A DNA stretch of 64,000 bases from Acidimicrobiia bacterium. GTDB taxonomy: Bacteria; Acidobacteriota; Vicinamibacteria; Vicinamibacterales; SCN-69-37. The position numbers were made by a program, and so were the translations under genes. Positions 48,385 through 53,150 of the stretch are shown piece by piece (position 1 is the stretch's first letter; every line of letters begins with the position of its first letter). The notes beneath the pieces were generated by a model. The model saw only the letters and a program-made list of their open reading frames with translations, searched no databases and was not told where the DNA came from. The stretch is from contig BTVE01000011.1 of NCBI GenBank assembly GCA_045862915.1, positions 15,182 through 79,181 on the forward strand, written 5' to 3'.

Positions 48385-48861
48385 TCAGGCGCCGGTTCCA
48401 CCCGAGACTTTCTCAATCAGCGAGGTCGTCGACCAGCCGTCTTCAATCCTCATCCGCACGACGCGGCCACCGCGCGCTTCGACGGTGTCTCGACCGACGA
48501 TGCGATCGGCAGCCCAGTCGGCGCCTTTGACGAGGACGTCGGGCTGCACGGCGGCAATGATGTCCGCAGGTGTCTCCTCGTCGAAGACCACCACGGCATC
48601 AACGCAGGCGAGGGCCCCAAGGACCTCCGCGCGTTCGTGCTCGGGATTGACCGGCCGAGTCGGCCCCTTGATGGCACGGACTGACCGATCGGAGTTGACG
48701 GCAATGATGAGGCGGTCGCCTTCGCGGCGCGCGGCCTGCAGGTACCGGACGTGACCGGGATGAAGGATGTCGAAGACGCCGTTGGTGAAGACAACCCTGG
48801 CGCCGGCATTCTGCTGCTCTCGCGACCACCGGGCAGCGGCCGCGCGGTCGGTCAGGATCAC
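48385..48861 (-). CDS. D-glycero-beta-D-manno-heptose-1-phosphate adenylyltransferase (RfaE/HldE domain II type cytidylyltransferase)
   Basis: 158 aa. Motifs: [19 protein letters not shown] (HxGH), [11 protein letters not shown], and VLVKGADW. Confidence 0.85.
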
Positions 48862-49091
48862 TCCAACCCTATCCGGCGGCGGAACGATCTGGCTCGGCTG
48901 AACTCATCGTCGCGCCAGGCGAGGTCGTACTTCTCAGCCCAGCGGAACACGAACTCCCGCGGGCTTTCGCAGAACATGTACGCCGCCTGCAGTGGCGGCA
49001 GTTCACCGCAGACCTCGGCCCAGCTCCTCGACAGGTGGATGCGGCACAGCGCGTCAACCTTGAACGCCCATTCATCAAAGGTAGTGGTCAT
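48858..49091 (-). CDS. Hypothetical 77-aa protein, translationally coupled to the heptose adenylyltransferase gene
   Basis: It has an ATG start and a 4-bp ATGA overlap with the downstream gene. It is Trp/Cys/Phe-rich ([55 protein letters not shown]). No family is recognised. Confidence 0.4.
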
Positions 49092-49130
49092 CGACTTGGC
49101 CCCGGTACGCCGAGGATAGCACTTGCCGTG

Positions 49131-49154
49131 GCGTCAATACGCTAGTATTGACGC
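49131..49154. promoter_or_regulatory. Perfect 10-bp inverted repeat (candidate operator) immediately upstream of the RHH gene
   Basis: GCGTCAATAC-gcta-GTATTGACGC, ending 6 nt before the TTG start at 49161. It lies in the 69-bp divergent intergenic region. Confidence 0.5.
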
Positions 49155-49160
49155 AAATAA

Positions 49161-49649
49161 TTGGCTAAGACTCAGCAGCTCCAGATTCGTGTGTCAGCCG
49201 CCCAAAAGGCGTTGCTCAAGCGGCGAGCGGCGGCCGCTGGCCTCGATGTCTCCACCTTCGTGTTACGTCGAGTGCTGGTGGACACCGAGGCGCAGCTGGA
49301 GGATCTGCTGGTCGCTCTGGCCGCAGAACGTGAGCCACGCGCTACCCTGGCCAGGGTTGGCGGGCTGCTGGCGAGCCTTGATTCCGCGTCCTTCCGCGAT
49401 CTCACGATGGCGCTGGATGTGTCCAGGTTGACCGCGTTTCACCAGAACTACCTGGCGGCGATGATCGAGCACCGCTCCAGTCAACTGGGAATGGCGGCTC
49501 CGGCGTGGACCCGGCGGGTGCCCGTGCCGGACGAGCCGTATTTCCCTGCGGGCACGGACCGGCTGCGGCCGTACCTGATGCGCGAGGCGCCGGTCGTCTA
49601 CAAACGCCGCAACCTGTTTGTGGATGCCGGCGTGGGAGATCACCTCTGA
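49161..49649 (+). CDS. Ribbon-helix-helix (TacA/MobC-like N-terminus) protein with an uncharacterised ~110-aa C-terminal domain; candidate antitoxin/regulator
   Basis: 162 aa with a TTG start directly after an in-frame TAA. QLQIRVSAAQKALLKRRAAAAGLDVSTFVLRRVL matches the beta-strand/helix/helix pattern of DUF1778/MobC-type RHH domains. The C-terminus is unassigned. Confidence 0.6.
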   Translation: MAKTQQLQIRVSAAQKALLKRRAAAAGLDVSTFVLRRVLVDTEAQLEDLLVALAAEREPRATLARVGGLLASLDSASFRDLTMALDVSRLTAFHQNYLAAMIEHRSSQLGMAAPAWTRRVPVPDEPYFPAGTDRLRPYLMREAPVVYKRRNLFVDAGVGDHL

Positions 49650-50233
49650 TGGCTGCCGCCCGACTGACCCGCTCCGATATCTCCCGGCTCTTCGAGCTGC
49701 TCAACGACGACCTGGCCGCCCGCGGCGTCACCGGCGAGGTCTACGTCGTCGGCGGGGCGGTCATGTGTCTGGCCTTTGGCGCGCGGGACGTCACACAGGG
49801 GGTCGACGCATTGCTCGAGCCATCTGGTCTCGTGCGGGAAGCGGCGGCGCGCGTTGCAACCGCGTCGAGTGTGGACCCGGCGTGGCTCAATGATGCGGTG
49901 AAGACGTTCCTCAGCGCGAAAGGGCAGTACGACCCCTACCTCGAGCTGAGCCATCTCAAGGTGTTCACGGCGCACCCGCACTATCTGCTGGCGCTCAAGT
50001 GCGTTGGCTTGCGGCTGGCTGAGGAGTTTCACGATCTGGACGATCTGCGGTACTTGCTTCGGCACCTGGATATCAAATCAGCCGAAGAAGCGCTCGCAAT
50101 TGTAGGGCGCTACGTCGACCTCGGTCGCGTCCCACGCAAAACACACGTGTTGCTGGATTCACTTGTGGAAGGCGGCACACCGCGCGTGCGGGATCTCATC
50201 CGCCGCTTCGCGACCCCAAAACCACGCGCGTAG
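49649..50233 (+). CDS. Minimal nucleotidyltransferase-fold protein (DUF6036 / AbiEii-like), candidate toxin or effector
   Basis: 194 aa from the internal ATG, which overlaps the upstream TGA by 1 nt (cTGATGg). Motifs: VYVVGGAVMCLAFGARDVTQGVDALL (NTase G-G...D pattern), WLNDAV, YLLALKCVGLR, and DLDDLRYLLRHL. Confidence 0.6.
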   Translation: MAAARLTRSDISRLFELLNDDLAARGVTGEVYVVGGAVMCLAFGARDVTQGVDALLEPSGLVREAAARVATASSVDPAWLNDAVKTFLSAKGQYDPYLELSHLKVFTAHPHYLLALKCVGLRLAEEFHDLDDLRYLLRHLDIKSAEEALAIVGRYVDLGRVPRKTHVLLDSLVEGGTPRVRDLIRRFATPKPRA

Positions 50234-50246
50234 AAACTCGCGCGCG

Positions 50247-51581: not shown

Positions 51582-52372
51582 ACCGCCTCCGCAAACGAGT
51601 CGCGCAGCCGATCGAACACCCAGTACGCACCGAGGAACAGCACGACAGACGCGGCGCCCAGGGCGAGCAGCCACCACTTGTGGCCGAACGGCCCGTCAAA
51701 GAACAGAATTTCCTGATACGAGATCGCAAGGTGCGAGAACGGATTCAGATCGAAGTAGAACTTGTACTTCTGGAAGTCCGGGTCGTTGTACCAGTAGATG
51801 ATCGGCGTGGCGAAGAACCAGAAGGTCAGCAGGTTCGCCACCAGATCCTTGACGTCACGAAAGTGCACCGCAAGGGCGGACAACAGCAACGCCAGCGCCG
51901 CCGTGAAGATGAACTGGACACCCACCACCGCGATGAACCAGGGGAGTTCGATCCAGTCCGGCGTGACCTGGTAATACGCCATGAACGCAATGAGGATGGG
52001 CAGGCCAAACAGGAAGTGCACCATGTTGGCGATGATTGTCACCAGCGGCAACACTTCGGCAGGGAAGAGTACCTTCTTGATCAGGTTGCCGCCGGAGATC
52101 AAGGAGCCGGTGGCCTCGTTGATCGACGACTGAAACCAGGTCCACGGCAGCAGCGCTGTGAACATGAACACAGCGTACGGCTGCACGCCCTCGGCCCGGT
52201 TCTTCAACAGGTACGTGAAGACAAAGCTGTAGATCGACAGGAGCAGGAGGGGGTTGACGAACGACCAGAAGAACCCGAGCACCGACCCGCGATACCGCGC
52301 CTTGAGATCACGCGCCACCAGGGTCTGAATCAGACCTCGGTAACGAAGCAACTTTTGCAGACTCTCAAACAT
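51578..52372 (-). CDS. wzm: ABC-2 type polysaccharide exporter permease (Wzm/TagG-like)
   Basis: The start is at the internal ATG (MFESLQKLLRYRGLIQTLVARDLKARYRGSVLGFFWSF), followed by six hydrophobic helices. Confidence 0.85.
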   Translation of the reverse strand: MFESLQKLLRYRGLIQTLVARDLKARYRGSVLGFFWSFVNPLLLLSIYSFVFTYLLKNRAEGVQPYAVFMFTALLPWTWFQSSINEATGSLISGGNLIKKVLFPAEVLPLVTIIANMVHFLFGLPILIAFMAYYQVTPDWIELPWFIAVVGVQFIFTAALALLLSALAVHFRDVKDLVANLLTFWFFATPIIYWYNDPDFQKYKFYFDLNPFSHLAISYQEILFFDGPFGHKWWLLALGAASVVLFLGAYWVFDRLRDSFAEAV

Positions 52373-53150
52373 CGATGCGCACCAGCACCACGGTGATGTT
52401 GTCCGGACCGCCGGCGGCATTGGCCGCGCTCACGAGCGCTGATGCCGCGGCCTCCAAATCGGCGCCTCGGGTGCCGGCGCTGCTGAGCGCGGTCTGCATG
52501 TCGTCGAGGCTGACCACCGAGGACAGTCCGTCCGAACAGACCAGCAGGACGTCGCCGGGCATCACCGGCAGTTCCCGAACGTCCACGTCGGGATCGTCAC
52601 CGCCGGAAATCGCGCGCGTGACCACGTTGCGCCACGGATGGCGGTGGGCATCGTCGTCGGACAACAGCCCGGCGCGCACCTGCTCGGTGACCCACGAGTG
52701 ATCCTGCGTCATCTGCTGCAGTACACGGTCGCGCATCCGGTACACACGACTGTCGCCCACGTGCGCGATGCACGCGGTGGCGGCGTCCCGATTGATCAGC
52801 ACGGCAGCCACCGTGGTGGCCATGCCCTTGAGCGCGGGATTGTCGGCCATCGCCGATGCGACGCGACGATTGGCGAGCCGGTACGCCGCGATCAGGCGAT
52901 TGGCATCAAGTGTCTTCGTGGTGTCGAACGGGAAGGGCCACGTCTGGTTGAGGTCCGCGTCACGCGATTCGTAGACGAATGACTCGACGACCTCGACGGT
53001 GAGACCGGATGCAACCTCGCCGGCTTCGTGGCCGCCCATCCCATCGGCCACGATGAACAGGCCGATGTCAGGACGCGCGCGGAAGGCGTCTTCATTGCTC
53101 TCCCGTCGCAACCCCGGATGGGTGACGGCAGCCGCCGAGACCTGCGTCAT
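52365..53150 (-). CDS. PP2C-family Ser/Thr protein phosphatase (Stp/PrpC-like)
   Basis: 261 aa. Motifs: THPGLRRESNEDAF, VADGMGGHEAGEVAS, HVGDSRVY, CSDGL, and GGPDNITVV. Confidence 0.85.
   Translation of the reverse strand: MTQVSAAAVTHPGLRRESNEDAFRARPDIGLFIVADGMGGHEAGEVASGLTVEVVESFVYESRDADLNQTWPFPFDTTKTLDANRLIAAYRLANRRVASAMADNPALKGMATTVAAVLINRDAATACIAHVGDSRVYRMRDRVLQQMTQDHSWVTEQVRAGLLSDDDAHRHPWRNVVTRAISGGDDPDVDVRELPVMPGDVLLVCSDGLSSVVSLDDMQTALSSAGTRGADLEAAASALVSAANAAGGPDNITVVLVRIDV

Follow-up and report, generated by a model that had tools for sequence, protein, structure and literature searches.

We examined a two-gene cassette in a 64,000-nt stretch of contig BTVE01000011.1 (assembly GCA_045862915.1, positions 15,182 to 79,181), which is referred to below as the window. 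Gene 1 encodes a ribbon-helix-helix (RHH) protein with an additional C-terminal domain (CTD), and gene 2 encodes a protein with a nucleotidyltransferase (NTase) fold. By analogy with characterised NTase toxins, we consider it reasonably probable that the cassette is a widespread, autonomous toxin-antitoxin (TA) or abortive-infection module of the MenAT/AbiE type with a new kind of antitoxin. Toxins of the MenT/AbiEii type are NTases that modify tRNA ends and thereby block translation; they are studied in tuberculosis persistence and phage defence. The evidence comes from gene structure, domain and fold assignments, the linkage and co-divergence of the two genes, the conservation of operator and promoter, synteny, selection, and the loss of one active-site residue in the window lineage.

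The elements of the cassette, in positions of the window, are as follows:

49131-49154, no strand: perfect 10+10 palindrome GCGTCAATAC-gcta-GTATTGACGC, a predicted operator that ends 6 nt before the TTG of gene 1
49161-49649, plus strand: gene 1, 162 aa, TTG start
49161-49292, plus strand: RHH DNA-binding domain of gene 1, aa 1-44, from Pfam and Foldseek
49293-49649, plus strand: CTD of gene 1, helical, ~118 aa, from invariant columns, a profile search and the structural model
49649-50233, plus strand: gene 2, 194 aa, ATG start, a DUF6036/AbiEii/MenT-like NTase-fold protein

The TGA stop of gene 1 and the ATG of gene 2 share one A to give a TGATG overlap, and GGGAGA (49634-49639), within the final codons of gene 1 and 9 nt upstream of the ATG, is a plausible Shine-Dalgarno sequence of gene 2. 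The left flank holds, on the minus strand, a 77-aa open reading frame (orf77, 48858-49091), a CTP_transf_like gene (ctp; heptose adenylyltransferase-like) and then mfd; the right flank, also on the minus strand, runs wzt-wzm-PP2C-atpC. An initial annotation of this DNA had described the reading frames, the TTG start, the overlap and the position of two plus-strand genes amid minus-strand neighbours. All of these were confirmed when the sequence was read again, and genes 1 and 2 are the sole plus-strand genes between the ctp/orf77 operon and wzt.

Conserved linkage of the two genes

A homologue of gene 1 lies directly upstream of gene 2, on the same strand, in all 80 genome loci that were retrieved with gene 2. 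These loci belong to the Acidobacteriota, Gemmatimonadota, Gamma-, Beta- and Deltaproteobacteria, Planctomycetota, Omnitrophota, Nitrospirota and Cloacimonadota. Pairwise identities of the gene 1 and gene 2 proteins are correlated (r = 0.80; the maximum of 500 label permutations was 0.21), and thus the partners have not been swapped. Conservation is higher in gene 2, with a mean identity of 62% vs 50% for gene 1. No third conserved gene was found, as the neighbours vary between the inspected loci.

Two single-chain fusions of RHH domain, CTD and NTase were present in the representative library, P0308 (344 aa) and P0389 (391 aa). These provide a Rosetta-stone hint of physical coupling between the partners, with the caveat that they could be sequencing artefacts. 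The junction in P0308 is short and direct; that in P0389 is an Arg-rich linker of ~60 aa and may be a read-through artefact.

The initial annotation had proposed a TA-like or defence-like module from a non-standard pairing that was neither TacAT, AbiE nor HEPN-MNT, and had named genomic linkage as the point on which this proposal could fail. The adjacency in 80/80 loci supports a self-contained pair, and the partner in these loci is always an NTase and never a GNAT protein. The suggestion that the module is "recombined" did not hold, as the pairing is a fixed architecture that co-diverges across phyla and no one-off combination.

Gene 2 and its nucleotidyltransferase family

Relatives of gene 2 are abundant, forming 3840 clusters at 90% identity (E <= 0.001), and none was found in phage genomes. 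Among 36 aligned homologues, 17 matched DUF6036 (PF19502), 11 matched DUF2204 and two matched AbiEii in Pfam; the DUF6036 matches were counted at E <= 0.01, with a best value of 1.2e-5, and the gathering score of this family is 23.6 bits. One homologue, P0077, scored 25.6 bits against AbiEii (PF08843; cut-off 22.5), in an alignment confined to the motif III/IV region. A profile search of PDB sequences with gene 2 gave noise only (Bcl-2, E > 1). The structural model of gene 2 had a pLDDT of 84.9, and Foldseek matched it to NTase folds only, all of them weakly: Pol mu, Pol lambda, TUTase, MenT1 and ANT(2'')-Ia. The match to MenT1 (8an4_B) had a probability of 0.92, E = 0.035 and a TM-score of 0.39, and those to ANT(2'')-Ia had TM-scores of 0.44-0.51.

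The AbiEii/DUF1814 family is defined by hG[G/S]x15DhD, a Lys/Arg motif III (KLxAaxxR) and a +DxxD motif IV, and substitution of D67 in AbiEii by Ala or Glu abolishes toxicity (Dy et al., PMC3985639). In the alignment of 36 gene 2 sequences, the invariant residues are G35, G36, R46, T49, D53, N81-D82, K117, R122, D129 and D132, and the family consensus reads GG, T49-R-D51-V-D53, K...R, HDxxD. The window protein has motif I (V33-V34-G35-G36), a candidate motif III (K117-C-x-x-L-R122, with K-x4-R spacing) and a candidate motif IV (H128-D129-L-D-D132), which matches +DxxD if His is counted as positive. The D-h-D of motif II, which supplies the metal-binding aspartates, is absent from it; the sequence there is T49-Q50-G51-V52-D53, with the codons of T49 at 49793-49795, of G51 at 49799-49801 and of D53 at 49805-49807. 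The initial annotation had noticed G-V-D in place of D-x-D, and comparison with the consensus T-R-D-V-D bears this out. Position 51 is Asp in 109 of 118 motif-matched sequences taken from the best matches (119 with the window protein), and the residue has also been lost independently in P0028, P0081, P0105 and P0123.

The Thr two residues before position 51 (T49) is invariant and is kept in the window protein. In characterised systems the toxin is switched off by antitoxin-induced auto-phosphorylation of a Ser or Thr (MenT1 T39, MenT3 S78, AbiEii T65), which in each case is the second residue ahead of the first catalytic Asp, and the D41A substitution in MenT1 abolishes phosphorylation (PMC11375011; bioRxiv 10.64898/2026.01.19.700257). 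The T-x-D-x-D consensus of the gene 2 family is an exact match to this layout of phosphoacceptor, any residue and Asp, as in T39/D41 of MenT1 and T65/D67 of AbiEii.

From this resemblance in motifs and modelled fold, with no significant sequence match, we read the gene 2 family as a compact DUF6036 branch that appears related to the DUF1814 toxins. An affinity to AbiEii and DUF6036 had been suspected in the initial annotation and agrees with the Pfam matches among homologues and with the NTase folds returned by Foldseek.

Gene 1: a ribbon-helix-helix domain with an additional C-terminal domain

The N-terminal domain of gene 1 is readily classified. It matched the NikA-like family of Pfam with 35.6 bits (cut-off 27; 1e-8) and TacA1 (PF08681) with 25.1 bits (cut-off 21; 1.7e-5), in agreement with the earlier assignment of an RHH segment, and homologues are annotated as "DUF1778 family" in their source records. 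The AlphaFold model of gene 1 (pLDDT 85.3) found structural relatives limited to the RHH part, namely NikA, Arc, AtaR, KacA, VapB12 and phage RHH repressors.

For the CTD, neither Pfam nor PDB sequences nor the folds of PDB and BFVD gave a match; the search of PDB sequences with gene 1 returned RHH proteins only, and the BFVD fold search made for the CTD returned RHH matches only. A profile of the CTD alone collected 1172 representative clusters (50% identity), nearly all of them proteins of ~163 aa with the domain at the same position. Conserved residues in the homologue alignment include N96, Y97, A100 and M101, P114-x-W116 and P126-x-F128. The most conserved part is the C-terminal tail, P144-x4-R149-R150-N151-L152-F153-V154-D155-x3-G159, for which the pattern among homologues is P-x4-[FY]-K-R-R-N-L-F-V-D-x3-G-D. 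We predict that the CTD binds and neutralises the NTase.

A HEPN domain had been hinted at in this region from an R-x4-H string (RLTAFH). The string is present, but R88 and H93 are unconserved in 37 sequences and no HEPN protein is among the fold matches of the model, so the HEPN reading of the CTD was rejected.

A conserved putative operator and a predicted leaderless promoter

The perfect inverted repeat lies 6 nt before gene 1, as the initial annotation had described it. Its right arm in the window holds a -35-like hexamer, TTGACG (49148-49153), and the family-wide core consists of GTCAATAC (49133-49140) and GTATTGAC (49145-49152). We searched the 4.5-Mb genome for GTCAATAC-N0-6-GTATTGAC with one mismatch allowed and with the reversed pattern as a control. 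The window site was the only match, and the reversed control had none. Upstream of gene 1 homologues, the core with a spacer of N3/4 recurs in 71/74 loci at two or fewer mismatches (none in 36 loci, one in 24 and two in 11). Of 88 upstream regions, 51 have perfect arms of at least 8 nt, compared with 1.6% of shuffles. Judged from this conservation, the palindrome is almost certainly the operator of the RHH protein.

The right arm is nearly invariant across loci and contains a TTGAC(A) -35 hexamer, whose end lies 30±1 nt upstream of the start codon in 56 of the 71 loci that have the core at two or fewer mismatches. In 68 loci the distance from TTGAC to the start codon is 26-33 nt. Each of these loci has an xAxxxT hexamer after a spacer of 16-18 nt (16% of shuffles), and in 62 of them this hexamer ends 5-7 nt before the start codon. 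The bases between the -10 hexamer and the start codon are C-rich and without a Shine-Dalgarno sequence. We infer a family promoter in which the -35 box is half of the operator and transcription starts at the start codon or right beside it, giving a leaderless mRNA, because the -10 box sits so near the start codon.

The window departs from this arrangement. Together with its closest relative, L001, it is without a stretch of ~25-31 nt which in the related loci L100, L085 and L098 bears the ancestral start codon as well as the -10 box. This promoter deletion leaves the window and L001 with a TTG start 6-8 nt past the operator (6 nt in the window). By eye, TAGTAT in the operator centre of the window is a possible -10 box, without a convincing -35 box. 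Two sludge metatranscriptome runs contained a few read-length contigs of 151-191 nt within both genes, which are compatible with low-level transcription, with DNA carry-over possible, and which are too sparse to place transcript ends. The sequencing runs that hold DNA of the window are mostly activated-sludge and wastewater metagenomes.

The cassette in the window lineage

Five members of the genus have the cassette at one and the same site, between ctp/orf77 and wzt: the window, G012/L001, L100, G008/L085 and L098. Eight other genomes of the genus are without it at that site, and in at least six of them the site holds other cargo, including a FitA-like RHH/PIN pair, an HNH_2 nuclease and a 660-aa Schlafen-group-3 helicase that corresponds to the PADLOC candidate PDC-S41 (E = 1.5e-275). 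The site is a genus-level accessory-gene hotspot for TA and defence genes. In same-genus genomes it was located at:

L114, 9468-10411
L115, 1710-3586
L116, 1668-5650
L117, 1764-4317
L120, 1787-3971
L121, 9989-11481
L001, 6582-8718

Two of the same-genus genomes, L001 and L002, are labelled "Acidimicrobiia" and "Solibacteraceae", and at least one of these labels is likely wrong.

A comparison of local GC with the flanks had been suggested in the initial annotation, which regarded the two genes as an "inserted islet". The GC content at third codon positions (GC3) of the cassette is 0.76-0.77, the same as that of the flanking genes. Synonymous divergence within the five-member clade is saturated (dS ~1-2), and the ratio of nonsynonymous to synonymous divergence (dN/dS) is 0.03-0.13 for gene 2, 0.07-0.39 for gene 1 and 0.03-0.15 for mfd. 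From the flank-like GC3 and the synteny across saturated dS, we rejected a recent horizontal insertion of the window copy. The islet description is thus correct insofar as the site is a variable hotspot, but not for the five-member clade, in which the cassette is vertically inherited and has the GC3 of its flanks.

Position 51 of gene 2 is G, G, G, S and T in the five clade members, so the first Asp of D-x-D has been lost in all of them. The clade has also gained a specific basic C-terminal tail in gene 2 (aa ~175-194). Because the missing Asp is equivalent to D67 of AbiEii and D41 of MenT1, gene 2 of the window should be severely impaired in toxicity as well as in auto-phosphorylation. By this analogy the window copy is probably attenuated or re-purposed and not fully toxic. 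It is no decaying remnant, because both genes stay under purifying selection and the other active-site residues are kept.

One neighbour is not part of the cassette:

48858-49091, minus strand: orf77, a 77-aa Trp/Cys-rich open reading frame, divergent from gene 1

The orf77 stop and the start codon of ctp overlap in ATGA (translational coupling), and orf77 shares with gene 1 a 69-bp intergenic region that contains the operator. No family match was found for orf77. It is confined to this genus, where it is under very strong purifying selection (dN/dS 0.01-0.12), and its identity is 88-99% among cassette-bearing genomes and 46-58% in those without the cassette. We considered orf77 as a third component of the cassette and rejected it as a feature of the family, since it is absent at all loci outside the genus.

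A gene for a PP2C-type Ser/Thr phosphatase lies 2 kb from the cassette (52365-53150, minus strand), in the wzm-wzt block. In S. agalactiae, phospho-AbiEii is a substrate of a Ser/Thr phosphatase (bioRxiv 10.64898/2026.01.19.700257). The proximity of the PP2C gene is nevertheless probably coincidental, because the PP2C-wzm-wzt block is kept in relatives without the cassette.

Distribution within the genus and association with toxin-antitoxin genes

Within the genus the cassette is patchy and comprises two lineages, with a match in the window genome and in five of 19 other genomes. Two of these five carry window-type copies at the same site, two carry canonical D-V-D copies elsewhere, and one (G014) has a decayed copy. 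In the latter (L097, G014:C19, ~1504-1856), residues 1-50 of gene 1 are joined straight to residues 90-157 of gene 2, an internal deletion through which a canonical copy has lost its partner domain and the active site of the NTase. One metagenome-assembled genome has two copies (L057, L067). PIN/Phd pairs and defence genes are frequent neighbours of the cassette, among them PIN/PhdYeFM pairs and also PIN with a Schlafen-type helicase. The general features of type II-style TA operons are present: two small, co-oriented genes that overlap or lie close together, a first gene with a DNA-binding domain, a palindrome (the predicted operator) over the predicted promoter, and a patchy horizontal spread.

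More distant relatives (30-39% identical), annotated as "DUF6036 family nucleotidyltransferase", occur on mycobacterial plasmids. The one plasmid that was inspected, from Mycobacterium intracellulare (L131, NZ_CP012886.2 152791-158303), carries a DUF6036 NTase that is 39% identical to gene 2, scores 29.1 bits against DUF6036, and adjoins PIN and RES/Xre TA pairs. It is preceded by a 114-aa hypothetical protein with P-x-W-T and S-P-x-x-F motifs that resemble the C-terminal half of the gene 1 CTD; the comparison of this protein with the CTD profile was not significant (hhalign probability 17%).

Proposed mechanism

In the mechanism that we propose, gene 2 would be the effector, a small Pol-beta-fold NTase. 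If it acts like MenT and AbiEii, it would stop translation by adding nucleotides to the 3' ends of tRNA. Gene 1 would have two roles, as the antitoxin and as the repressor of its own operon. The RHH domain would bind, probably as a dimer of dimers, to the 20-bp palindrome GTCAATAC-N4-GTATTGAC, which in the family overlaps the -35 box of the promoter for the putative leaderless mRNA. The CTD, with its invariant RRNLFVD tail, would bind the NTase and neutralise it either by occlusion or, in the manner of MenA and AbiEi, by causing it to auto-phosphorylate the invariant Thr that stands two positions ahead of the first catalytic Asp. We state as predictions that gene 2 is toxic, that it acts on tRNA, that gene 1 binds the operator and neutralises gene 2 in one of these ways, and that the transcript is leaderless.

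Several results weigh against a toxin of this kind. The window gene 2 protein has no significant family in Pfam (DUF2204, PF09970, at E = 0.075 only), no match to the DUF6036 hidden Markov model at E <= 1 and none to PF08843. Its Foldseek E-values are all 0.016 or higher, the TM-score to MenT1 is only about 0.4, and ANT(2'')-Ia, an antibiotic-modifying enzyme and no toxin, outscores MenT1 by this measure. The motif III spacing is K-x4-R vs the K-x6-R of DUF1814. Scans with PADLOC and PHROGs gave no match for gene 1, gene 2 or orf77, our literature search on DUF6036, PF19502 and DUF2204 found nothing relevant and no paper on the cassette, and a sigma70 promoter scan of the window locus detected none. 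Finally, long syntenic retention at housekeeping-level constraint with the Asp lost is unlike a classical addictive toxin, and the role of the cassette may be a different one from poisoning the cell.

In a doubtful but specific extension of this mechanism, the RHH-CTD/DUF6036 pair would be a very abundant new branch of type VII-like NTase TA systems, in which the CTD tail triggers auto-phosphorylation of Thr49, the conserved leaderless promoter has a -35 box that is half of the operator, and the window lineage is a natural "toxin-dead" derivative without the Asp that abstracts a proton and binds metal. If this were true, the retention of a toxin-dead lineage would imply a second, non-toxic function of the complex between NTase and partner, for example in nucleotide sensing or in transcriptional control of the neighbouring envelope genes.

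Alternative explanations

An improbable alternative is a regulated, non-toxic NTase. The substrate of gene 2 would then be a cellular one or a small molecule such as an antibiotic or metabolite, as with ANT(2'')-Ia and Lnu enzymes, and gene 1 would be its dedicated repressor, with a CTD that senses a ligand. The best global structural matches are indeed to ANT(2'')-Ia, the window clade has kept the cassette in synteny under housekeeping-level selection, PADLOC has no match, and toxicity is attributed to the family by analogy. The active site is nevertheless of the DUF1814 type (Thr-x-Asp-x-Asp, Lys helix and HDxxD), and some members exceed the Pfam threshold of AbiEii. The genes are invariably coupled, overlapping or close, and sometimes fused, which suggests control by protein-protein contact over ligand sensing, and the patchy horizontal distribution, decayed copies and TA or defence neighbours also argue against this explanation. 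An alternative that is somewhat less probable still concerns the window lineage, where the cassette could have been domesticated: the NTase would be a dead pseudo-enzyme, and the RHH protein would chiefly regulate the divergent orf77-heptose adenylyltransferase operon via the shared operator. The absence of the first catalytic Asp in 5/5 clade members fits such a role, as do the promoter deletion in the window and L001, after which 6-8 nt separate operator and start codon, the location of the operator in the divergent region common to orf77, and the higher identity of orf77 in module-bearing genomes. The identity difference may, however, be purely phylogenetic, as module-bearing genomes are also closer in mfd, and the rest of the gene 2 active site is invariant, which speaks for a nucleotide chemistry that has been kept.

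HEPN-MNT systems have NTases as antitoxins, and the R-x4-H string of the window gene 1 protein raises the thought of a reversed polarity as in this type VII group, with the CTD as a toxin that the NTase silences by nucleotidylation. We regard this as very improbable: the string is unconserved, the confident gene 1 model matches neither HEPN nor any other nuclease fold, the active-site motifs of gene 2 are of the DUF1814 type and not MNT, and the NTase gene lies downstream of gene 1 and is the better conserved of the pair, as is usual for toxins. That the cassette is the remnant of a mobilisable element, with gene 1 as a NikA/MobC-type relaxosome accessory protein and the palindrome as an oriT-like site, is hardly credible. 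NikA-like is the best Pfam match of gene 1, and there is a structural match to an N-terminal fragment of NikA; against this, no relaxase or transfer gene lies beside any inspected locus, the fixed geometry of palindrome, promoter and start codon points to an operator and not an oriT, and the partner is always an NTase.

Implications of the toxin-antitoxin interpretation

As an NTase TA module, the cassette would add a very common environmental branch of NTase toxins, with thousands of sequences in many phyla, and an RHH antitoxin with a new partner domain. It would also add an unusually conserved operator and leaderless promoter that travel with the genes. The conservation of this operator would make it an easy system in which to study how antitoxin binding controls NTase toxins. 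The window clade is a natural experiment, in which a key Asp and part of the promoter have been lost and the genes are still selected, and it bears on what chromosomal TA modules do after toxicity ends. New here are the quantified cross-phylum architecture of the operator and predicted leaderless promoter, and the vertically fixed clade that is without the Asp and part of the promoter.

Comparison with known systems

AbiE (AbiEi/AbiEii), from Streptococcus agalactiae and Lactococcus, was first classified as type IV and is placed in type VII in a 2026 preprint; the C-terminal domain of AbiEi carries the antitoxic activity (PMC3985639; bioRxiv 10.64898/2026.01.19.700257). The cassette resembles AbiE in being bicistronic, with a two-domain DNA-binding antitoxin upstream and a Pol-beta-fold NTase downstream, in its predicted autorepression via inverted repeats over the promoter, and in the NTase motifs (GG...T-x-D-x-D, with likely counterparts of the Lys/Arg helix and of +DxxD). 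It differs in that the DNA-binding domain is RHH whereas that of AbiEi is a winged helix-turn-helix (wHTH), and the CTD is without detectable AbiEi similarity in sequence or fold. The cassette NTase is also shorter (~175-195 aa vs ~290 aa for AbiEii) and has K-x4-R in place of K-x6-R, the operator is one 20-bp palindrome in contrast to the 23-3-23 repeats of AbiE, and the window copy is without the Asp equivalent to D67 of AbiEii. Nor does gene 1 fit the AbiEi/MenA3-type antitoxins (COG5340), since its N-terminus is RHH and its CTD is unmatched in Pfam, PDB and BFVD.

In MenAT1 of Mycobacterium tuberculosis (Rv0078B-Rv0078A; PMC10435456, PMC11375011), the toxin MenT1 is an NTase of ~190 aa with a T-R-D loop as in the gene 2 family consensus. 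Antitoxin-induced Thr auto-phosphorylation could apply to gene 2 by analogy, because T49 is invariant. The antitoxins are unlike each other, as MenA1 is a 68-aa single-helix protein without a DNA-binding domain and is not autoregulating. With a TM-score to MenT1 of ~0.4 and no significant sequence match, tRNA modification by gene 2 is suggested by analogy only.

DUF6036/DUF2204 is the closest sequence family of gene 2, and its relatives on mycobacterial plasmids are annotated as DUF6036 and found among TA pairs. The window protein is, however, below the threshold, the plasmid relatives have a different and shorter upstream partner, and DUF6036 has no assigned function or literature. TacA/TacT, AtaR/AtaT and KacA/KacT resemble the cassette in the antitoxin, as the RHH domain of gene 1 exceeds the Pfam threshold of TacA1 and matches AtaR and KacA structurally. 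Their partner is a GNAT protein and not an NTase, and gene 1 has an unrelated 118-aa domain after the RHH. From the HEPN-MNT type VII systems the cassette differs in that gene 1 has no conserved R-x4-6-H and no HEPN fold match.

To our knowledge, NTase toxins characterised so far have either wHTH-type antitoxins (AbiEi, MenA3) or very small ones (MenA1). The architecture of an RHH domain with a new C-terminal domain fits none of AbiEi, MenA1/MenA3, TacA or HEPN-MNT. AbiE and MenAT are the closest models in function, and DUF6036 is the closest named family in sequence.

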